Origin: a virus
Taxonomy: Duplodnaviria; Heunggongvirae; Uroviricota; Caudoviricetes
Reading direction: 5' to 3' (one strand)
Length of the DNA: 42,302 bases
IMG/VR virus record: IMGVR_UViG_2713896905_000008
In this document: in pieces, positions 2,183 to 42,302 of the stretch
How positions within the stretch are numbered: the first letter of the stretch is position 1
Layout of the letters: every line of letters begins with the position of its first letter
Program-made: the position numbers and the translations under genes
The notes under the pieces: generated by a model
Seen by the model: the letters and a program-made list of their open reading frames with translations, nothing else
The model's database searches: none
What the model was told of the DNA's origin: nothing

Positions 2183-2633
2183 CTTCGTATGCTCAACTCG
2201 ATAGATTCATGATTGAGAATCTCAGACAGACTCAATACGACGCGATGTGCGCAGTCGCAGTGATTCAGGCAGAGATCGAGCGATATCGTGAGAAAAATGG
2301 GCTACTAATGCCATAACCACAGTCAGCGCTTGTCATCTTTCCAAATTCTCATATCAGACTTGCGCCCGATAAACCGACGAAAACTATTTAAAACCCATCG
2401 AGTGAAATAATCTCTAAAACCAAAGAGATACCAGGTGAAAATATTCACGATAAAATGCCCGGTCAGAGCCCCCGATACCGCATGCAAGAACAGTAAAAAA
2501 ATCATATGTGTTCATAAATATCAGCCCTCATCGTTTTGCCTGGCATATCCTTTACCGGCAATCTTCTGTATGCGCTAAGCCTGGATACCACATCACACTT
2601 GATTTAGATCTGTCACGGCGAACTGCCGTTCAA

Positions 2634-3134
2634 GATAAATGCGGGATGCTACTTGCTCTTGTTACTGGACAACGTTTAGGCGATATCTGCAATTTGAAAT
2701 TCTCTGATATCTGGGACGACATGTTGCACATTACTCAGGAAAAAACCGGTTCAAAACTTGCTATTCCGCTTAACCTGAAATGCGATGCTCTGAATATTAC
2801 CCTTCGTGAAGTTATATCTCAGTGCAGGGATGCTGTTGTTAGTAAATATCTGGTCCATTACCGTCACACAACCTCTCAAGCAAACAGAGGGGACCAGGTT
2901 TCTGCAAATACTCTGACAACGGCTTTTAAAAAGGCCAGGGAAAAATGTGGCATAAAATGGGAGCAAGGAACTGCGCCCACATTTCATGAGCAGCGATCTC
3001 TGTCAGAACGGTTATATCGGGAACAGGGTCTGGATACGCAAAAGTTGTTAGGTCATAAATCCAGAAAAATGACCGACCGATACAATGATGATCGTGGTAA
3101 AGACTGGGTTATCGTAGATATGAAAACAGCATAG
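2634..3134 (+). pseudogene. 5'-truncated tyrosine integrase (paralogue of the int at 41175-42302)
   Basis: Translation LLALVTGQRLGDICNLKFSDIWDD...HEQRSLSERLYREQGLDTQKLLGHKS...DRYNDDRGKDW aligns with the C-terminal ~165 aa of the full integrase at the window end. The N-terminal two-thirds are absent; the upstream ORF sequence is unrelated. Confidence 0.8.
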
Positions 3135-3240: not shown

Positions 3241-3414
3241 GTAGTGATTACATATTCTTGATGATCGCGTCACCAAACTCTGAACATTTCAGCAGCTTAG
3301 CGCCTTCCATCAGACGTTCGAAGTCATAGGTTACGGTCTTCGCATTGATTGCGCCTTCCATACCTTTAACAATCAGGTCTGCGGCTTCAGTCCAGCCCAT
3401 ATGGCGCAGCATTA
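3241..3414 (-). pseudogene. icd: duplicated 3' end of isocitrate dehydrogenase gene (icdC-like att-site duplication)
   Basis: Minus-strand translation [54 protein letters not shown] is the Icd C-terminus. Homology stops abruptly at about 3414, where A+T-rich phage DNA begins. Confidence 0.85.
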
Positions 3415-3471
3415 GTTAGATAACTAAATCGTAACTATTTGACATAGCAGCATAATTTTACTAATTTGCAT

Positions 3472-3506
3472 ATAACTCATTAGCTCTTAGCATTTCCATA
3501 ACTCAT
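3472..3506. repeat. two direct copies of ATAACTCATT next to the att junction (candidate integrase arm-type sites)
   Basis: cATAACTCATTag at 3472 and cATAACTCATTga at 3497, within 100 bp of the icd/phage boundary. Confidence 0.35.
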
Positions 3507-3645
3507 TGATTATCAACATGTGTTTTTGAGTTTTGATAACCATTTTTAGCATAAAAATAGCAGTTAACATTTGCAGAAGTTAAGATCAGAGAAAATTTTT
3601 ACCCTGTAGGGTATTACGTCTTAAATGTGACTTTAATAAACAATT

Positions 3646-4479
3646 TTATTTCTGTAATCGATTTATATTAACGTAAAGCATCTCGATTAGTTCTTTTGCA
3701 TTTTTACTATAGTGCAATTCTCTATGGCAATTCGGACAAAGGGCAACACAGTTATCTGTTGTATCAGCACCACCTGAAGACAGGGGAATTACATGATGCA
3801 CTTCCAAGTATGGGCTTCCATCATTTAAATAAAACGGAGCATTTTTACCACAGTTTTCACATATACCTTTACTTTGCTGTAAAATCCAAGCTTTTACCAT
3901 CGGATCTCGGACATAAACTTTTTGTAGTCTTTCTACCTCAACTGGTTTCCTGGAGCCCTCGGGCTGACTCAACGTTTTCTTAATTAATTTACTAACCCTC
4001 ATATTCAGAAGCGATTCATCATCTGTAGGCTGAGAAAGCTCTGATAGTTCTCCACGTATTATAGACACCCAAAAACTGTCACTATAAATACCTGGAACAT
4101 TTATCAATATTCGTTTCGTTCTATTGCCGGAAGGAATTTCCTTTCTCCCCGTACGACTAAAATAAGCCTGATAACCACACATCTTCAAGCGTATATCGCG
4201 GGGGCTATTACCAATCAAAGTAAAATATTCACCAGGATGGATTTTTCTTTCATCCAAAGAATGCATATGTTTTCTGACTGATGATGACGCCAGATATACT
4301 ACGACTTGGGATACACCAGAATCAACCAACCGTTCAATGATATAATCAAGAGCGATATTGTAATCTTTGTTTCTGTCACCCGGCCCCCACGACTCAAGGA
4401 TTAGACCATAAACACCATCCTCTTCACCTATCAAACACTCAGCTTTCAGTTCAATTCCATTATTATCAAAAACATGCAT
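3646..4479 (-). CDS. mcrA: McrA, type IV 5-methylcytosine-specific restriction endonuclease (HNH)
   Basis: 277-aa translation matches E. coli McrA essentially end to end as I recall it (MHVFDNNGIELKAEC...CENCGKNAPFYLNDG...HHVIPLSSGGADTTDNCVALCPNCHRELH). Same position as in e14, next to pin. Confidence 0.9.
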   Translation of the reverse strand: MHVFDNNGIELKAECLIGEEDGVYGLILESWGPGDRNKDYNIALDYIIERLVDSGVSQVVVYLASSSVRKHMHSLDERKIHPGEYFTLIGNSPRDIRLKMCGYQAYFSRTGRKEIPSGNRTKRILINVPGIYSDSFWVSIIRGELSELSQPTDDESLLNMRVSKLIKKTLSQPEGSRKPVEVERLQKVYVRDPMVKAWILQQSKGICENCGKNAPFYLNDGSPYLEVHHVIPLSSGGADTTDNCVALCPNCHRELHYSKNAKELIEMLYVNINRLQK

Positions 4480-4585
4480 AATATTAATCTTTAATCAATT
4501 TTTTACGACAATACTACTTTTATTGATAAAATTGCAACAAGTTGCTGTTGTTTTATTTTCTTTTGTACACAAAGTGACTTTAACT

Positions 4586-5147
4586 TTATTTATCCCCTGC
4601 AGGAAACATCTTATACAAAGTTGACACACCAACATCATAGATGATCGCCACCTTCTGGCGAGGAACTCCTGATGCAATTAATCGTCCGGCCTGTTCCCAT
4701 TGTTCTGGTGTAAGTTTGGGACGACGTCCACCAATTCGTCCCTGTGCGCGAGCAGCTTCCAGTCCAGCTTTTGTTCGTTCAACAATCAGTTCACGCTCCA
4801 TTTCAGCCAGGGCACCCATCACATGAAAAAAAAAAGCGCCCCATTGGGGTACTGGTATCAATTGAATCCGTCAGACTACGAAAGTTAATGCCTCGTTCGC
4901 GCAACTCCTCCACCAGCACGACAAGATGCCGCATACTGCGCCCCAGTCGGTCCAGTTTCCAGACCACCAGCGTGTCACCTGCCAATAATGTCCTGAGCAG
5001 TTTTTTCAGTCCTGGTCTGTCGGACTTAGTTCCACTGATTTTATCCTCAAAAATCCGCTCACATCCCGCGCAGTTCAGTGCATTACGTTGCAAATCGGTG
5101 TTCTGGTCATTTGTTGACACGCGTACATAGCCAATAAGCATGATCAT
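4586..5147 (-). pseudogene. pin: Pin/Gin/Hin-family serine DNA invertase, interrupted by a +1 frameshift
   Basis: N-terminal ORF 4803-5147 (MLIGYVRVSTNDQNTDLQRNAL...SIDTSTPMGRFFF) and C-terminal ORF 4586-4861 (FFFHVMGALAEMEREL...) are consecutive parts of Pin. The frames diverge in an A10 run at 4826-4835; with nine A's the reading is continuous. Confidence 0.85.
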
Positions 5148-5168
5148 CCCTCTGAATAAAAACCAGAG

Positions 5169-5702
5169 ATGATGCCAGTTAGCCGTTATTTCTGCATTTT
5201 CATAAACGTTGGTTTGGGAGAAGGTTCGGCATTACCCGTTGGAGTGCCTGTTCCGTGGCCTTCTGCCACTCCGCCAACAGGCTGGCTGAAATGCAACGGT
5301 GCGGCATTTTCTGCTGAAGAATACCCGGAACTGGCAAAGGCTTATCCGGCAAATAAATTACCTGATTTACGCGGTGAGTTTATTCGTGGCTGGGATGACG
5401 GGCGTGGAGCTGACAGTGGTCGGGGATTATTAAGCTTTCAAAAAGCCACTCTGGTTGAAAGTTTTGGTCTGGTCAGATCACCAACCACTGGCTCTTATCG
5501 TCTGGTTACCAGACCGACAGAAACTGTTTCTGATAATACGTCTAACTATATGACGACTGATTATGATTCCCGTGAAGGTTTATATTCCCCTGCAACAGCA
5601 TACCCCTCTATCGAATTGCCACCAACTGGAGCAGGCGCAGGGGCTGGTTTTAGGGTTCGACCAAGGAATATTGCATTTAACTATATTGTGAGGGCTGCAT
5701 AA
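5169..5702 (+). CDS. alternative tail-fibre C-terminal domain (S'v-like), not joined to the constant region in this orientation
   Basis: Reads in frame through the hix-like site (INVGLGEGSA versus [10 protein letters not shown] in the expressed fibre). Followed by a Tfa-type gene. Confidence 0.7.
   Translation: MMPVSRYFCIFINVGLGEGSALPVGVPVPWPSATPPTGWLKCNGAAFSAEEYPELAKAYPANKLPDLRGEFIRGWDDGRGADSGRGLLSFQKATLVESFGLVRSPTTGSYRLVTRPTETVSDNTSNYMTTDYDSREGLYSPATAYPSIELPPTGAGAGAGFRVRPRNIAFNYIVRAA
5197..5222. promoter_or_regulatory. left recombination site of invertible segment (hix/gix-like, inverted relative to 7057-7082)
   Basis: Reverse complement TTCTCCCAAACCAACGTTTATGAAAA shares the half-site TTCTCCCAAACCAA with the site at 7057-7082. 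Presumed crossover dinucleotide at 5209-5210. Confidence 0.7.
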
Positions 5703-6304
5703 TGGATAACGCCATATTAAATAGCGAGATTATCGCCACCAAAGCAGGGAATATTACAGTATATAACTATGATAGTGAAACCCGGGAATATATTTCCACT
5801 TCAAATGAATATCTTGCTGTGGGTGTCGGTATTCCTGCATGTTCCTGTTTAGATGCACCAGGCACATATAAGGCTGGTTATGCTATCTGCCGTTCGATGG
5901 ATTTAAACTCATGGGAATATGTGCCAGACCATCGCGGTGAAATCGTCTATAACACCGAAACGGGAGACGCCAAAGAAATCACAACTCCGGGTGATTACCC
6001 CGAAAAAACAACCACTATCGCCCCGTTAACGCCATACGATAAATGGGATGGTGAGAAATGGGTGACGGATACCGAGGCACAGCATAGCGCCGCAGTAGAC
6101 GCGGCAGAAGCACAACGTCAGTCACTGATTGATACTGCAATGGCTTCCATTAGTCTGATTCAACTGAAATTGCAGGCCGGACGGAAGTTGACGCAGGCAG
6201 AAACAACCCGACTTAACGCCGTGCTGGATTACATTGACGCGGTGACGGTAACAGATACCAGCACCGCGCCGGATGTCATCTGGCCTGAACTGCCGGAGGC
6301 GTAG
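5702..6304 (+). CDS. tail fibre assembly protein (alternative copy, U'-like)
   Basis: 200 aa. C-terminal region (LQAGRKLTQAETTRLNAVLDYIDAVTVTDTSTAPDVIWPELPEA) is typical of the Tfa family and parallels the ORF at 6276-6719. Confidence 0.8.
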   Translation: MDNAILNSEIIATKAGNITVYNYDSETREYISTSNEYLAVGVGIPACSCLDAPGTYKAGYAICRSMDLNSWEYVPDHRGEIVYNTETGDAKEITTPGDYPEKTTTIAPLTPYDKWDGEKWVTDTEAQHSAAVDAAEAQRQSLIDTAMASISLIQLKLQAGRKLTQAETTRLNAVLDYIDAVTVTDTSTAPDVIWPELPEA

Positions 6305-6719
6305 GCCATTCAATATCTGGAGCACTGGAAGTATCGACCAGTTCCAGTGCGTCCAGATAATCCAGCCACAAATTATATTGCGCCAGTTCCTCACCTTTCA
6401 GACGACCAATAGCGGCTTTACCGGGCCATTGCTTACTGTTCATGTGTTCGTTGGCCTGATTAAGCAATAATTTTCTTTCTGATTCTGCCTGTTGAATAAG
6501 TTCTTCATGTGATGGTTGAGGTATTTCAGCCCATGTGGGAAAACCATTTACCCCTGCAACTCGGATTTTCCCTTGTGGCGGTTCCGCTATATATTTTACA
6601 GAAATGTTATCAGGAATATCTAATGCATCAGCGGGCCATGTTCCATTTACTTCATAAGTATTTTTTAAATTAACAGCATAAAATGCATTTTCCGAAGGGG
6701 AATAAATATATTGATTCAT
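6276..6719 (-). CDS. tail fibre assembly protein (U-like, in expressed orientation)
   Basis: 147 aa. C-terminus AIGRLKGEELAQYNLWLDYLDALELVDTSSAPDIEWPTPP is Tfa-like. Directly follows the tail-fibre gene. Confidence 0.8.
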   Translation of the reverse strand: MNQYIYSPSENAFYAVNLKNTYEVNGTWPADALDIPDNISVKYIAEPPQGKIRVAGVNGFPTWAEIPQPSHEELIQQAESERKLLLNQANEHMNSKQWPGKAAIGRLKGEELAQYNLWLDYLDALELVDTSSAPDIEWPTPPAVQAR

Positions 6720-6720
6720 A

Positions 6721-7359
6721 TTATCTTCCTATTGCGATAATCATAGTTCCATACAAACCATTTCCGGTTGATACTTTTAAGGTTACTGATGTCCTTGTTG
6801 TCGTGTACCCCATAAGTTTAAAGGTCGGAGCAGCCGTTAATGTGCCATCAGACCATAAGGCACTAACAGCCAGTGCACCTGAAGGAAATGCAATAGGGAA
6901 ATTACCAGTAGTTCCGTTAGTGTCCGCCCCATAAACATTCATCGAAAACATTTGAACAATATGACCACTTGGTAACTGAAACCAGTTTTTGCCAGATGGA
7001 AATGCAGACATATCTGGTATCTGATTTTCTCCTGTTCCCACATTCCGTTTTGCCGCTTCTCCCAAACCAAGGTTTTCGAGAGCCGTTTTCACCGTGCCAT
7101 CCGATTTGATATCGCCAAACGGATTATTGCGGCTTAACAGCAGCGCGCGAAGTGCGGTAAGCAACTGATCGTGCCGCCCCTTCTCCAGGCTGGCACCGGA
7201 TGCCTCCACCACGCTGCAAAGCTCCTCCTGCAACATGTCAAAGTAGTCATCATCCAGATCGGTGGCAGGCGTGCCGGTCTGGGGGTTACCACGGGTAAAA
7301 CCGTTCTTACCCGCGCCGAACTTATCCTTCTGCGCGGTTTTCGTGTCTATACGATGCAT
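6721..7359 (-). CDS. tail fibre protein (constant N-terminus joined to currently expressed variable C-terminus; stfP-like)
   Basis: 212 aa. The hix-like site lies in frame at ALENLGLGE. Sits between the gp48-like gene and tfa, as in e14 and Mu S. Confidence 0.8.
7057..7082. promoter_or_regulatory. right recombination site of invertible segment (hix/gix-like)
   Basis: TTCTCCCAAACCAAGGTTTTCGAGAG; imperfect dyad around a central AA, reminiscent of 26-bp hix/gix sites. Located inside the tail-fibre coding region. Confidence 0.7.
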
Positions 7360-27406: not shown

Positions 27407-28582
27407 ATGGATATAACTTGTTTAGAATGTGGCAATGTTCTTGACGACCCAACTGTAGCTTGCGATAAATGCGGCGCCACGCCTCATGTTGTAGTGCTGG
27501 GCAAACAATCGTACTTTCCTATTGGTGCTGTAACAGCAAATCTTGAAAAAAATGATTCAAGAGCATTTGATTATCGATTAGGTGAAGTTTGGGATCTAAA
27601 AAATGAAGTCACATCTGAATTCATAACCAGAATTGAGAAAAAATTTAGCCGAAAAAACAAATTTCATAACTTCCTAGACTCAGATCACAACCCTTCATCC
27701 ATTCCTACGATCCTAAAAAAATACATTAATAAAAATAATGAATTCATTGATTTATCTAGAGCTATAATAGAGAAGCTTAAACATAATGCTAATAACGAAT
27801 CGAGAGTTGCCCAACTTCAGGGGGGGAGCGTTGTTTTCATCCACTATAAGTCTACCGAACCAGAGGATTTGGGAAAACTTCTAATCGTAATGGTTGATAA
27901 ACAAAGCGCCTATGACTTTGATTCGGATAAGTTGACCCCAACAAGATTAAATCCAATTAATACCGATGCCTTACGGCAGGCTGCGATGTTCGATTTAACT
28001 TTATTCGAAGCCAGTTATCCAGAAAACAAGGGTGACTCATATGTACATTTCTTGCAAGGTAAATCTAAAAGCGATTTTTTCAAAGACTCATTAGGTTGCC
28101 GACATGATTCGGACAATAAAAGAAGCATTCAGCAATTATTCAGTGCTATAGATATTTTTGCTAGTAAAAACTCACTCGGTCGTGTACTGCGTGATACTAT
28201 TGACAATGAAGTTAAATCCTTACTGGAAAAAAAATCAAAAGATAAATACGGAAATAAGTCCGTTAAGATAGAGGATATTTCAAAAATAATTGACTCATGC
28301 CTGACTGATTCACACAAATGTAAGGGAACGTTTGTCGATTTTGTTAATCTTAATGGTTTCCAGATTGATCCTCAATTTGAACCAACTCCTAAAGCAGCTG
28401 AAAGCGCGCTTACAATTGAAGTGGCAGATAACGACAATAATTTTAAGTTGAAAATAATGCGTGGAGCTATTGGAGACGAAAAGTCAAATAAGCCTGTAAT
28501 TCTCACTGACAACAAATGCGAAATTGTGATAAAATTGAGTCAGGCAAATTATGATGAACTCAAAAGATATAGAGACAGCTAA
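27407..28582 (+). CDS. zinc-ribbon protein with NdpA/YejK-like (NA37-type) region; first gene of a cargo pair
   Basis: 391 aa. N-terminal CLECGN...CDKCG four-Cys ribbon. Central region aligns by eye with YejK: GGSVVFIHY / GGFVLFCHY and YVHFLQGKSKSDFFKDSLG / [22 protein letters not shown]. A+T-rich. Confidence 0.6.
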   Translation: MDITCLECGNVLDDPTVACDKCGATPHVVVLGKQSYFPIGAVTANLEKNDSRAFDYRLGEVWDLKNEVTSEFITRIEKKFSRKNKFHNFLDSDHNPSSIPTILKKYINKNNEFIDLSRAIIEKLKHNANNESRVAQLQGGSVVFIHYKSTEPEDLGKLLIVMVDKQSAYDFDSDKLTPTRLNPINTDALRQAAMFDLTLFEASYPENKGDSYVHFLQGKSKSDFFKDSLGCRHDSDNKRSIQQLFSAIDIFASKNSLGRVLRDTIDNEVKSLLEKKSKDKYGNKSVKIEDISKIIDSCLTDSHKCKGTFVDFVNLNGFQIDPQFEPTPKAAESALTIEVADNDNNFKLKIMRGAIGDEKSNKPVILTDNKCEIVIKLSQANYDELKRYRDS

Positions 28583-28584
28583 TA

Positions 28585-29799
28585 ATGACAATTGCTGATG
28601 ACTTATCAAGATTAGCGCAGATTATTAACGGAGCCTCAAGCAGAGTTGAGGGCTACTACACTGTCATAAGTCTTGAAGAAAGCATTGTTATTGTAAATAG
28701 TTCTGAAATAATTAGACTGTTACAATCTATAGGTTATAAAAAGGCAACAAACTGCATCGAAAATAATGAAATTTGGCTAGATCGCCAAGCTTCATCTTGG
28801 GATGACGCTATAATTTATGAGAATGTTGAGTCTTTTTGGTCTAGAGTAAACACCCAAAACGCTCTTCCGAAAAATTATATCATCGGAACGCCGTTAATAC
28901 TCCCTACTTCTAAGAATGAAAGCATCGAAAAAATCCATATTTTCTTTATGTGGAAAGATATCCTTTCATTAATTGCTGATCATCATAACAGTGACTGCTC
29001 TGTCTTATTTTTCACCAATGAAGACAAAAGTTATACAGTCGAACTCACGCATTTTTTACAATATAGCGAGATTAATCGCTTATCGAACTCGTCTCTTAAA
29101 TATGAAATTATAAAGGAGCTTCTCGACACAATAAAAATCAATGATTTACACAAAAGCGAGCGCAAGCTCGTTATACGTTCAGCCATAAACGAAGTATTTA
29201 AAGCAAATGGTACATTCAATTTCTTTGACTTGCTTAACTCTACTGAACTCGTCAGAAAAAAATATGATGAACTATATGAGATTTACACAAAGAGGTTTTC
29301 TGTAAATAAAATTCTTAACGAACTCGATGAGAAAAATCTTGAGTTCACGAGTAAAATTAACGAATTCATATCATCTAATCAGACAAAAGCATTGACTATT
29401 CCCGGTGCATTAATAGCAGCTGGTGGCTTAGTGAAGGCTAATGAAACAACCGAAGCAATATTGATTATCGCAGGACTTTGGATGATAAAAAAAGTCAATT
29501 ACATTTCTATTGAGATATTCAATGAAACATTCGACAACTTACGTTCTCGAGTGGAGTCCGCTTTCGATAAGTATTTAAAGTTTGAAGAAAATAAAGAAAT
29601 CAAAGATAATGCAGATAGTATTAAGAGTAGCATTACAGGTTTGATTGATAAAGCTAAAAAAAGGATGAGAACTGTTAAATATCTCGCATCAGCCATGTTT
29701 TATGGAGGCCTTATTTACGTTGGATATAAACAGTTCCCAGTCTTTTTTGAAAAATCGGCAGTAAATCTATTTTATTTTTTATGCCATACTATAAGCTAA
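28585..29799 (+). CDS. protein with C-terminal two-helix membrane anchor; second gene of the cargo pair
   Basis: 404 aa, starts 2 nt after the upstream stop. Hydrophobic helices ALTIPGALIAAGGLV...AILIIAGLWMI and YLASAMFYGGLIYVGY. No enzymatic motif recognised. 3' end overlaps the Q gene stop convergently. Confidence 0.6.
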   Translation: MTIADDLSRLAQIINGASSRVEGYYTVISLEESIVIVNSSEIIRLLQSIGYKKATNCIENNEIWLDRQASSWDDAIIYENVESFWSRVNTQNALPKNYIIGTPLILPTSKNESIEKIHIFFMWKDILSLIADHHNSDCSVLFFTNEDKSYTVELTHFLQYSEINRLSNSSLKYEIIKELLDTIKINDLHKSERKLVIRSAINEVFKANGTFNFFDLLNSTELVRKKYDELYEIYTKRFSVNKILNELDEKNLEFTSKINEFISSNQTKALTIPGALIAAGGLVKANETTEAILIIAGLWMIKKVNYISIEIFNETFDNLRSRVESAFDKYLKFEENKEIKDNADSIKSSITGLIDKAKKRMRTVKYLASAMFYGGLIYVGYKQFPVFFEKSAVNLFYFLCHTIS

Positions 29800-36069: not shown

Positions 36070-36756
36070 GTGAAAACACTGGCAGAACGATTAAAGATAG
36101 GTAGAGAGAAAGCTGGCATGAGCCAAGCTCAACTAGCTGAAAAAATTGGACTTTCACAACAATCTGTAGCCAAAATAGAGAATGGCGAAACTCTACAACC
36201 GCGCAAAATTAAAGAAATTGCAAAAGTTTTAGGTGTATCACAAAAGTGGTTACAACTTGGTATTGAAGACAACGCATCCATACCTGATCTTGTTGTAAAA
36301 GAAGCAGAAAGCACCGCATTAGACCCCGATATTTTCGTAAACATTCCTGTTTTAGATGTCGAGTTATCGGCAGGTAACGGATGTCTGGCTGAAATAGTTG
36401 AATCAGCTATTGACTGGTTTCCGTTAAGAAGAGCAGATTTGAGAAAATCTGGCGTATGTGCATCTAATGCCAAGATCGTAAAAATATGGGGGAACAGTTT
36501 ATTACCGGTTCTCAATAATGGAGATCTTGTTGCCGTTGATATTTCTCAAACCATTCCTATTCGTGATGGCGATCTTTATGCCGTACGAGATGGTGTATTG
36601 CTAAGGGTTAAAATACTTATCAACTTACCTGACGGTGGCTTGATTCTTAGAAGCTTCAACAAAGATGAGTACCCAGATGAAATACTCACCTTTGAAGATA
36701 GACGAGCCAGAATTCATGTTATAGGTAGGGTATTCTGGTCATCGCGAACTTGGTAA
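36070..36756 (+). CDS. CI-like prophage repressor (HTH plus LexA/S24 peptidase-like domain)
   Basis: 228 aa; N-terminal HTH MSQAQLAEKIGLSQQSVAKIENG; C-terminal S24-like region (IWGNSLLPVLNNGDLVAVD). Probable GTG start. Confidence 0.8.
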   Translation: MKTLAERLKIGREKAGMSQAQLAEKIGLSQQSVAKIENGETLQPRKIKEIAKVLGVSQKWLQLGIEDNASIPDLVVKEAESTALDPDIFVNIPVLDVELSAGNGCLAEIVESAIDWFPLRRADLRKSGVCASNAKIVKIWGNSLLPVLNNGDLVAVDISQTIPIRDGDLYAVRDGVLLRVKILINLPDGGLILRSFNKDEYPDEILTFEDRRARIHVIGRVFWSSRTW

Positions 36757-37659
36757 TGCATCGAAAAGCATTTCTTCAGAAATAATTTTAAGTTTTGCAC
36801 CATTATCATCCCTATAAGATATAGCTTTTTCGATCTTCCTTCCGTGACTTGAGAATTTCCAATCACGGGAGGAAAGCGTCCCAATTACTAAAAAATCCAA
36901 CTTTTGAGTAATTCCACTACTGATGTTCCCACCAGCATTTTTAATCAAATTTTCAACTACGGCTCTCTTTCCTGCAACAAAAGTGCCTGTAAGACAATAG
37001 GTTTTACCCTCTAACTCTATCGAAGCCCCTACATCAATAGGCAGCCTGGTCGCCAAACCATCCACCACCCCACTTTCCAAGTCACATCCTGTGAAGTCTA
37101 CTAATGCCTTATGTAGAGTTAAACTCTCATCTTCAGTAATAACCCCATCTTTAAGAATTTCCTTTACAAGTGCATAAAGTTTTTTTCCTGGGTAGTTGTT
37201 CTTCAAAGCTCCATTTTGCTCAAGCCACCAATTAAGATATCTTATTTCTTCTTGAGTTAAGTTCCGATCAGCAATTAATCCTTTACATAGTCCATTAAGT
37301 AAATGGACATCTACATCCTTGGAGTAAAAATCAATTTCAGGGATATCAAGAATTTCCCTCTGTATTTGGAGAAGGCTATTTTTAAGGTCATCACGTTCTT
37401 CTGATGTGATTATTCCATCCGCAAGAATATCCGACACCCGTGCTGATAGACTTTTTATAACTCCATTATTGATAATCTGCTTTGCTTCAAGTAACCATGT
37501 ATCTAAGTAAAGAACCTCCTCTTCACGGACAACTCCATCTGCAATGATTCCATCAATGATGCTAATCAAGTTAGCAAATAACTTGTCCCGGTTCTGTGTG
37601 TAATTAAAAGCGTAAAGCGCGTCTTCCATACAACCTCCTTTTTTTGATAATCCTTGCAC
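36739..37659 (-). CDS. BRCT-domain protein with four N-terminal ~35-aa repeats, unknown function (cargo at rexAB-equivalent position)
   Basis: C-terminus LEGKTYCLTGTFVAGKRAVVENLIKNAGGNISSGITQKLDFLVIG...KLKIISEEMLFDAL parallels the LigA-type BRCT fold. N-terminal repeats each contain ..ADG.IT.EE...L.. A+T-rich; convergent with cI. Confidence 0.55.
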   Translation of the reverse strand: MQGLSKKGGCMEDALYAFNYTQNRDKLFANLISIIDGIIADGVVREEEVLYLDTWLLEAKQIINNGVIKSLSARVSDILADGIITSEERDDLKNSLLQIQREILDIPEIDFYSKDVDVHLLNGLCKGLIADRNLTQEEIRYLNWWLEQNGALKNNYPGKKLYALVKEILKDGVITEDESLTLHKALVDFTGCDLESGVVDGLATRLPIDVGASIELEGKTYCLTGTFVAGKRAVVENLIKNAGGNISSGITQKLDFLVIGTLSSRDWKFSSHGRKIEKAISYRDDNGAKLKIISEEMLFDALPSSR

Positions 37660-40933: not shown

Positions 40934-41194
40934 ATGAGGTTATCAAAAATGCTTCAAATGCTGACACTTGAGGAATGGGCTGCGGAAAAATTTAGGAGTA
41001 ATCCTCCAAGTGTGTCCACATTGCGTCGTTATGCTAAGCAGAATTTATTTTGTCCACCAGCAATGAAACAAGGTCGACTCTGGCGAGTACGTGAGGACGC
41101 AGAGTTAGTTGGGGAATTAGTTACTCCTGTCATCAAGAAAAGTGATTCTATTATTCTACAAAGGATTTTAAGTAATGGCAGCCAGACCACGTAA
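40934..41194 (+). CDS. xis: excisionase (lambda Xis-like)
   Basis: 86 aa; LTLEEWAAEKF...STLRRYAKQNLFCPPAMKQGRLWRVREDAEL parallels lambda Xis; overlaps the int start. Confidence 0.75.
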   Translation: MRLSKMLQMLTLEEWAAEKFRSNPPSVSTLRRYAKQNLFCPPAMKQGRLWRVREDAELVGELVTPVIKKSDSIILQRILSNGSQTT

Positions 41195-42302
41195 AAATAA
41201 TGTCTCAGTCCCGAACTTGTATCCGCTCTATAGCAGAAAAGTAAATAAAGTCTATTGGCGATATAAGCATCCAGTGACCGGGAAGTTTCATTCTTTGGGC
41301 GCAAACGAAGCTGAAGCCATTGCTATTGCCACTGAGGCCAATACACGCCTGGCTGAGCAAAGAACCCGGCAGATTCTGGCTATCAGTGACAGGATCGCAA
41401 CCAGCAAAGGAAAAGCAATCACAACGTCAACCTGGTTAGATCGCTATCAAGCAATCCAGGATGACAGACTGAAAAGTGGCGATATAAAGCTCAACACCTA
41501 TAAACAGAAAGCCAAACCAGTATCCTTGCTCAGGGAACGAGCAGGAATGAAGTTAATTTCATCCGTTGATGTAAGGGATATAGCACAATTGCTTGACGAG
41601 TATATCACTGCTGGGCAACCGAGGATGGCGCAAGTAGTCCGCTCCGTTCTAATTGATGTATTCAAGGAGGCACAACACTATGGGGAGGTCCCTCCTGGCT
41701 ATAATCCAGCATTAGCGACCAAACAGCCCAGAAGAAAAATTACCCGACAACGGTTAAGCCTTGAAGAATGGCAAAAAATCTTTGATATCGCAGATGCCAG
41801 TCATCGTTATATGGGGAATGCCATGCTGTTAGCACTGGTTACCGGTCAGAGGTTAGGTGATATCTCGCGTATGAAATTTAGCGATATTTGGGATGATCAT
41901 CTCCATATCATTCAGGAAAAGACCGGGAGCAAAATCGCAATTCCTCTTTCTCTTCGTCTCAACGCGATTAACTGGAGTTTACGCGATGTAGTCGCTCGCT
42001 GCCGTGACTATGCAGTCAGCCCATACCTTGTACATTTTTTCCGTACTACTTCACAGGCTGAACGTGGCGCGCAGGTTAAATCCAATACATTGACCATGAA
42101 TTTCAGTAAAGCAAGGGATTTGGCAGGAATCGACTGGGGGGATGGATCGCCCGCAACATTCCATGAACAAAGATCTTTATCTGAACGTCTTTACAAACAA
42201 CAGGGGTTAGACACACAAAAACTACTTGGTCATAAATCACAACAACAAACCGATCGTTATCATGATGATCGAGGTAAAGGATGGAGCAAAGTAGCATTGT
42301 GA
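41175..42302 (+). CDS. int: tyrosine integrase (lambda Int family, e14 IntE-like)
   Basis: 375 aa, complete, with stop at the last three bases of the window. C-terminal catalytic region (HEQRSLSERLY, LLGHKS, DRYHDD). 3' end faces the window edge, where the att site is expected. Confidence 0.9.
   Translation: MAARPRKNNVSVPNLYPLYSRKVNKVYWRYKHPVTGKFHSLGANEAEAIAIATEANTRLAEQRTRQILAISDRIATSKGKAITTSTWLDRYQAIQDDRLKSGDIKLNTYKQKAKPVSLLRERAGMKLISSVDVRDIAQLLDEYITAGQPRMAQVVRSVLIDVFKEAQHYGEVPPGYNPALATKQPRRKITRQRLSLEEWQKIFDIADASHRYMGNAMLLALVTGQRLGDISRMKFSDIWDDHLHIIQEKTGSKIAIPLSLRLNAINWSLRDVVARCRDYAVSPYLVHFFRTTSQAERGAQVKSNTLTMNFSKARDLAGIDWGDGSPATFHEQRSLSERLYKQQGLDTQKLLGHKSQQQTDRYHDDRGKGWSKVAL

Follow-up and report, generated by a model that had tools for sequence, protein, structure and literature searches.

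The locus described here raises the question of why the gene of a DNA invertase should be split by one extra base right beside the invertible segment that it is expected to serve. An earlier reading, made from the letters of the sequence only, had offered three answers: a genuine inactivating mutation that locks a tail-fibre switch, a slippage-prone tract that could toggle the expression of the invertase, or a homopolymer sequencing error. We analysed the locus within a stretch of 42,302 bp (hereafter the window) and concluded that the finding is most probably a real but ordinary homopolymer frameshift and not a new type of switch. The system itself is a known one, the e14 Pin/P segment, present here in a full-length Escherichia albertii prophage with a dead invertase.

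The pin lesion and the prophage around it

The interrupted gene and its parts are as follows.

4586..5141, minus strand: pseudogene of pin, a pinE-type serine DNA invertase (556 nt, against 555 nt when intact)
4803..5141, minus strand: N-terminal piece of pin, with 105 native residues including the catalytic Ser9 region, then 7 out-of-frame residues (SCDGCPG) and a stop
4826..4835, no strand assigned: A10 run (T10 in the coding sense), covering the codons of Phe103-105, one base too long; the corresponding stretch is T9 in relatives and TTTTTCTTT in E. coli pinE
4586..4825, minus strand: rest of pin, untranslated, with most of helix E and the HTH_7 DNA-binding domain

On the plus strand, positions 4820-4840 read CACATG-AAAAAAAAAA-GCGCC, with exactly ten A's at 4826-4835, and hence ten T's on the coding minus strand. 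No homopolymer in the 42,302-bp window is longer, and the base composition predicts about 0.07 A/T runs of at least 10. The sequence-only reading had placed the two halves of a Pin/Gin-type invertase in different frames that part at this run, and we observed that both the reading frames and the Pfam matches agree with it. The ORF of the N-terminal piece has 112 aa when started at 5141 and 114 aa when started at an upstream ATG at 5147; it begins MLIGYVRVST, reaches PMGRFFF and, as had been read, runs out through SCDGCPG (...PMGRFFFSCDGCPG*) to a stop at 4803. The proper continuation, HVMGALAEMERELIV...PAGDK, is read in the following frame and ends at a stop at 4586. Pfam matched Resolvase profile positions 2-115 of 145 on the N-terminal piece and gave no HTH_7 there, and it matched Resolvase positions 109-144 together with a complete HTH_7 on the C-terminal piece.

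When one T was deleted in silico, a 184-aa Pin ORF was obtained that is 100% identical to the intact Pin of the relatives, so the prediction that nine A's restore the frame held. The restored Pin aligned with the Mu Gin structures 3UJ3 and 4M6F over residues 1-181 without a gap (E = 2.7e-95), its VRVST motif, the conserved region of the catalytic serine, aligning with that of Gin. The resolvase catalytic domain PF00239 was matched at residues 3-135 (E = 1.9e-51), and HTH_7 (E = 1.1e-14), encoded but off-frame in the window, comes into frame only once one T is removed. The 5' part of the gene, where Din-family invertase genes have a Fis-dependent recombinational enhancer, is the same as in active T9 relatives. 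Judged from its sequence, the pin of the window is a member of the Din family by descent and a pseudogene by state. The 114-aa product of the upstream ATG is not on record in the protein collection, unlike the 112-aa product. We also considered a rescue by split protein, in which the N- and C-terminal pieces are made separately, and rejected it: helix E is cut, and the internal ATG at 4819 is without a ribosome-binding site.

The first 15,141 bp of the window are 100% identical to BBVV01000013.1 (GCA_001514905.1). BBVV01 belongs to E. albertii EC03-195, which was isolated from a human in Japan in 2003 and is available as an Illumina MiSeq draft of 52x assembled with Platanus (Ooka et al. 2015, Table S1, PMC4700944). 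The window holds a complete e14/SfV-like prophage integrated at icd of this strain. The prophage is full length (about 38 kb) and has all the head, tail, lysis, replication and immunity genes. Its one end carries an IntE-like integrase (375 aa, 41175-42302), and a CI-like repressor, a CII-like activator and O-like replication genes are also present; the structural and lysis set comprises endolysin, terminase, portal, capsid, sheath, tube and a Mu-like baseplate. At the other end lie, in order, the fibre switch, pin, mcrA and a 3' remnant of icd, the last two being as follows.

3646..4479, minus strand: mcrA, a type IV methyl-directed HNH endonuclease gene, intact, downstream of pin on the same strand
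3248..3412, minus strand: icd 3'-end remnant, the prophage end, from an e14-type attachment at icd

For annotation, the gene is therefore best labelled as a frameshifted pinE pseudogene in a complete e14/SfV-like prophage of EC03-195, and the finding has little import beyond this labelling. The mcrA product matches the type IV methyl-directed restriction model over its full length, and the gene lies 106 nt 3' of pin. If the two are co-transcribed, the premature stop in pin could lower the expression of mcrA by polarity.

A few other features of the surroundings were observed. Past the icd remnant lies a second phage integrase, truncated to 208 aa (window 2508-3134, plus strand; also region 1-2500), and on the longer contig L001, 12008-17401, RusA, TfpB-like and OmpT-like genes are followed by ymgF and ymgD. 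The integrase and the RusA-side genes are what remains of a second prophage, in tandem at icd. Among the relatives, at least four different neighbours are found at the junction with the icd remnant. At 27407-29799 (plus strand), between the lysis genes and the HNH/regulator genes, two genes run antisense to their neighbours and encode an NA37-like nucleoid-associated protein (391 aa, phrog_3767) and a 404-aa protein (phrog_5023). PADLOC matched nothing for either of these possible cargo (moron) genes. Next to the CI-like repressor is the gene of a 306-aa protein that ends in a BRCT domain (36739-37659, minus strand; phrog_3989) and weakly matches the candidate defence model PDC-S48 (E = 2.7e-7).

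The invertible segment and its known counterparts

The switch that pin adjoins consists of these elements.

5197..5222, minus strand: pin-side crossover site (pixL-like), TTCTCCCAAACC AA CGTTTATGAAAA as read on the minus strand
7057..7082, plus strand: distal crossover site (pixR-like), TTCTCCCAAACC AA GGTTTTCGAGAG, within the tail-fibre gene
5211..7068, no strand assigned: invertible segment of 1,858 bp, in the orientation that expresses the 212-aa fibre
6721..7359, minus strand: expressed tail-fibre gene, 212 aa, with a constant N part outside the segment and a Gp53-like C tip
6276..6719, minus strand: tail-fibre assembly chaperone, 147 aa, partner of the expressed tip, intact
5223..5702, plus strand: silent alternative fibre tip (Collar domain), intact
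5702..6304, plus strand: silent alternative tail-fibre assembly chaperone, 200 aa, intact

The two crossover sites are inverted repeats of 26 bp with identical inner 12-bp half-sites and an AA core in both. Inversion of 5211-7068 in silico placed the silent Collar-domain tip behind the constant part of the fibre and gave a fibre of 260 aa, identical to that of a flipped relative (L006). The segment had been called intact, and this is borne out by the two sites, the two tips with their chaperones and the known fibre that the inversion yields. The sequence-only reading had put the gene at 4586-5147, the run at 4826-4835 and the segment at 5210-7069, all of which are right to within a base or two.

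Among the T9 assemblies the segment lies as in the window in 5 and is flipped in 11, and all the T10 assemblies have the orientation of the window. Two T9 sister assemblies, GCA_037911045.1 (L100) and GCA_037911005.1 (L101), each carry the locus on a 302,071-bp contig with 100% identical flanks and the segment in opposite orientations. As they differ by orientation alone, the T9 allele of pin is active in nature.

In draft genomes of other Enterobacterales, about 25 of the 80 loci have a contig end 64-205 nt, mostly 64-131 nt, upstream of the start of the invertase (L019, L021, L022, L026, L027, L032, L038, L040, L042, L043 and some 15 others). The crossover core of the window is 68 nt upstream of this start. 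Such breaks are probably the assembly signature of mixed orientations. The exact McrA is found only on contigs shorter than 2 kb in 35 of 92 blocks. The T10 assemblies run unbroken through the crossover site, and because long T9 contigs do so too, assembly breaks are a weak sign of active inversion.

The same locus is known from e14 of E. coli K-12, where the Pin/P segment has the order ymfQ, stf, tfa, tfa', stf', pinE, mcrA and icd remnant, with two alternative fibre tips that each have a chaperone of their own. The annotation of E. coli RM10466 (ymfQ, tail fibre, pinE, mcrA, icd fragment, iraM) is the e14 locus in the order of the window. The pin DNA of e14 is 95% identical to that of the window, and the crossover sequence of the window matches the e14 sites. 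e14 in K-12 is only a short remnant, whereas the prophage of the window is full length (about 38 kb), has E. albertii as its host, and carries an uninterrupted T run in the Phe codons and the +1 frameshift. The G segment of Mu is the same kind of switch of tail-fibre tips, and the restored Pin is collinear with Gin, as described above. The phage backbone and the constant part of the fibre are different in Mu, and its Gin is intact. For a dead invertase beside its segment there is a precedent in a close relative of E. coli, as Tominaga and co-workers reportedly described, in J Bacteriol in 1991, a naturally defective pinF, an e14-type pin, in Shigella flexneri.

The extra base in assemblies and relatives

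The T10 tract is common to three assemblies, namely the NCBI Platanus/MiSeq assembly GCA_001514905.1 and the Logan assemblies of DRR017201 and DRR017202, made with two assemblers from two read sets. No other record has the exact 112-aa product, and a look-up of the 77-aa C-terminal piece as a separate call returned DRR017202 only. DRR017201 is 100% identical to the window across 11.8 kb. DRR017202 is the same as the window over 3351-6444; in the icd remnant beyond, it has 20 mismatches in about 155 nt, and the neighbour gene past the remnant differs from that of the window, which indicates a different chromosomal flank. As T10 occurs in independent assemblies, one of them with a different flank, an assembly artefact is unlikely. 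DRR017201 and DRR017202 are adjacent run accessions, and both T10 read sets probably come from one laboratory.

Relatives were gathered by look-ups with the exact McrA and the exact 200-aa chaperone, which yielded 17 distinct assemblies with the same prophage end. The comparison of the tract in related strains, proposed earlier as a check, gave a uniform result: all 17 have T9 and an intact 184-aa Pin, and apart from the indel their pin genes differ from that of the window by 0-1 nt. In GCA_032538145.1, compared with the window over 10,480 bp, the indel in the tract is the sole difference. The mutation must therefore be very recent. EC03-195 and the strain of GCA_032538145.1 thus form a near-isogenic pair, with a presumed natural knock-out of the invertase, in which the contribution of the invertase could be studied.

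In a collection of 15 billion proteins, 42 contigs encode the intact Pin, 2-3 encode the T10 product and none the exact T8 product. Tract lengths are T9 in 17 assemblies and T10 in 2 strains, and there was no T8 or T11 tract among the T9/T10 relatives compared.

Origin of the T run and competing explanations

The conservation of the run was followed in a homologue scan with one genome per species, which covered 80 loci, the GRFFFH motif being readable in 44. An uninterrupted T9 (TTTTTTTTT) was found in none of these 44 homologues from other species. The commonest form was TTTTTCTTT (17 of the 44); one locus had a run of 8, and the rest had runs of 3-6. E. coli pinE is also TTTTTCTTT, a single C separating it from the window-type T9 89-mer (98.9% identical), and the T9 89-mer was present in none of 5,426 complete E. 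coli genomes. From this distribution, the uninterrupted T9 is a derived state, reached via a synonymous TTC-to-TTT change. One more pin allele, 95% identical, shares T9: it is the IMG/VR contig L097, the single T9 contig that a gapped pattern scan for T8 to T11 returned there, while the JGI metagenomes gave none. That T9 is missing in the homologues of other species and in E. coli pinE speaks against a contingency tract under selection, and since the T9 alleles of E. albertii are only 0-1 nt apart, their sharing of T9 is uninformative about selection.

Rates of indels vary with the length of homopolymer runs, and a 9-bp A:T run was a hot spot in mutation-accumulation lines of E. coli (PMC8510543); such runs are generally avoided in coding regions (PMC1088944). 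The explanation that we regard as probable is a genuine and recent +1 replication slippage from T9 to T10, which would have killed pin as a by-product of the hot spot and left the switch wholly or nearly held. By the synonymous change from TTC to TTT, the T5 and the T3 of TTTTTCTTT have become one unbroken T9, a mutational hot spot at which slippage would have added one T. The ribosome then leaves the Pin frame after Phe105 and produces a stub of 112 aa that retains the catalytic-serine core, whereas nearly all of helix E and the entire helix-turn-helix domain are missing from it. For want of these two elements the stub should be unable to bind the crossover sites, and from what is established for serine recombinases it should not form the synaptic tetramer either. 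The cis elements and both cassettes of fibre tip and chaperone are untouched, and the orientation would stay, wholly or nearly, with the 212-aa fibre. EC03-195 would accordingly have lost invertase activity and have a locked switch, and the phage of this lysogen is expected to carry mainly one of the two fibre tips. Residual inversion is possible, by slippage of RNA polymerase, by reversion to T9 or by an invertase acting in trans. The locus offers a natural example of how a single synonymous change, TTC to TTT, can create a mutational hot spot.

How do the other explanations compare with this one? If the extra T were a sequencing or assembly error, the strain would truly be T9 with an intact pin. 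Ten-base homopolymers are a classic site of indel errors and the EC03-195 draft was built from PCR-based Nextera XT libraries, but a +1 error in an Illumina consensus at a 10-mer is rare, at 52x included, and De Bruijn assemblers are steered by the majority k-mers. The T9 of every related assembly from other laboratories, and the near-identical strain that differs at one base, this very indel, would both suit an error; they are opposed by the agreement on T10 of three assemblies from two assemblers and two read sets, one of the latter being from a genome with a different flank. A mixed T9/T10 population or a systematic artefact of the library could likewise give a T10 consensus. We consider an error very unlikely, and of the three original answers it is the genuine mutation, seen in the NCBI and two Logan assemblies, that is best supported. 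A different reading accepts the frameshift as real and lets another Din-family invertase of the genome invert the segment. In the literature of the 1980s and 1990s, Din-family invertases (Gin, Cin, Pin, Hin) are reported to act in trans and to complement each other. E. coli genomes with a pin-like gene carry up to 6 copies, but the median is one copy per genome having any, and a second Resolvase/HTH_7 gene is absent within the 42-kb window. The T10 assemblies also cross the crossover sites in a single orientation, which is weak evidence against inversion in trans. We judge such an invertase unlikely to be at work.

The remaining explanation is that the tract serves as a contingency site, where reversible T9/T10 slippage of the DNA, slippage of RNA polymerase on T10 (giving an in-frame U9), or both, set the dose of the invertase. 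Invertases are effective at very low doses, and the tract, the longest homopolymer of the window, has two lengths among near-identical prophages and recurs as T9 in the 95%-identical allele L097. Runs of 9-11 A/T support transcriptional slippage in E. coli, in Shigella mxiE, which has a T9 run (PMC1088944), and in Citrobacter rodentium tssM1, where an A11 run gives about 20% frame restoration (PMC4256274), and the slippage of E. coli RNA polymerase favours poly(T) (PMC6260861). The window pin resembles these Enterobacteriaceae genes in having an A/T run of 9-11 nt at the frame junction of an out-of-frame gene, and a run of at least 9, as programmed slippage demands, is indeed there (T10, on the sense strand). 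However, in mxiE and tssM1 the split state is conserved and functional, whereas in pin it is a rare variant of an in-frame gene (2-3 contigs against 42), the relatives being in frame and T8 not being on record. Nor is the tract kept across diverged homologues and alleles, as in a contingency locus: T9 is confined to the E. albertii allele and the one 95% allele, being missing in 44 of 44 homologues from other species and in E. coli pinE, and the near-identity of the E. albertii T9 alleles makes their retention of T9 no sign of selection. Use of the tract as a contingency site thus appears distinctly unlikely. The combined form of this idea, a two-level switch in which T9/T10 slippage toggles pin between lineages and RNA-polymerase slippage on T10 provides a low dose that tunes the change of tips, we regard as highly improbable. 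A tract that worked as a rheostat would add a little to the biology of phase variation; the evidence points the opposite way. Of the earlier suggestion of a slippage-prone tract, the mechanistic part is true, while a maintained toggle has left no sign in other species or in E. coli pinE. The frameshift is a by-product of the hot spot, with no designed switch behind it.

Lesions of related invertases were also met. A protein search with the truncated product matched many truncated invertases, which we rejected as recurrences of this mutation, as they are other alleles with lesions elsewhere; truncated invertases sit clustered under longer representatives, and the protein-database matches therefore give no count of recurrences. 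Another pin-like allele, GGCCGT TTC TTT TTT CAT GTC, has a -1 change in a T6 run (Logan SRR30949417, L094, and ERR10497989, L095), and its product of 117 aa (...FFFMSWGPWLKWSAN) belongs to a cluster of 46 member sequences. The Phe-Phe-Phe codons are a recurrent frameshift site of the family, or else a recurrent site of sequencing errors. In the IMG/VR record IMGVR_UViG_2778261420_000020 (L097, 2407-4507), pin is missing its initial ~49 codons and the invertible segment is partly gone, both through a deletion that fixes a fibre of 256 aa and is a different route to a locked switch.
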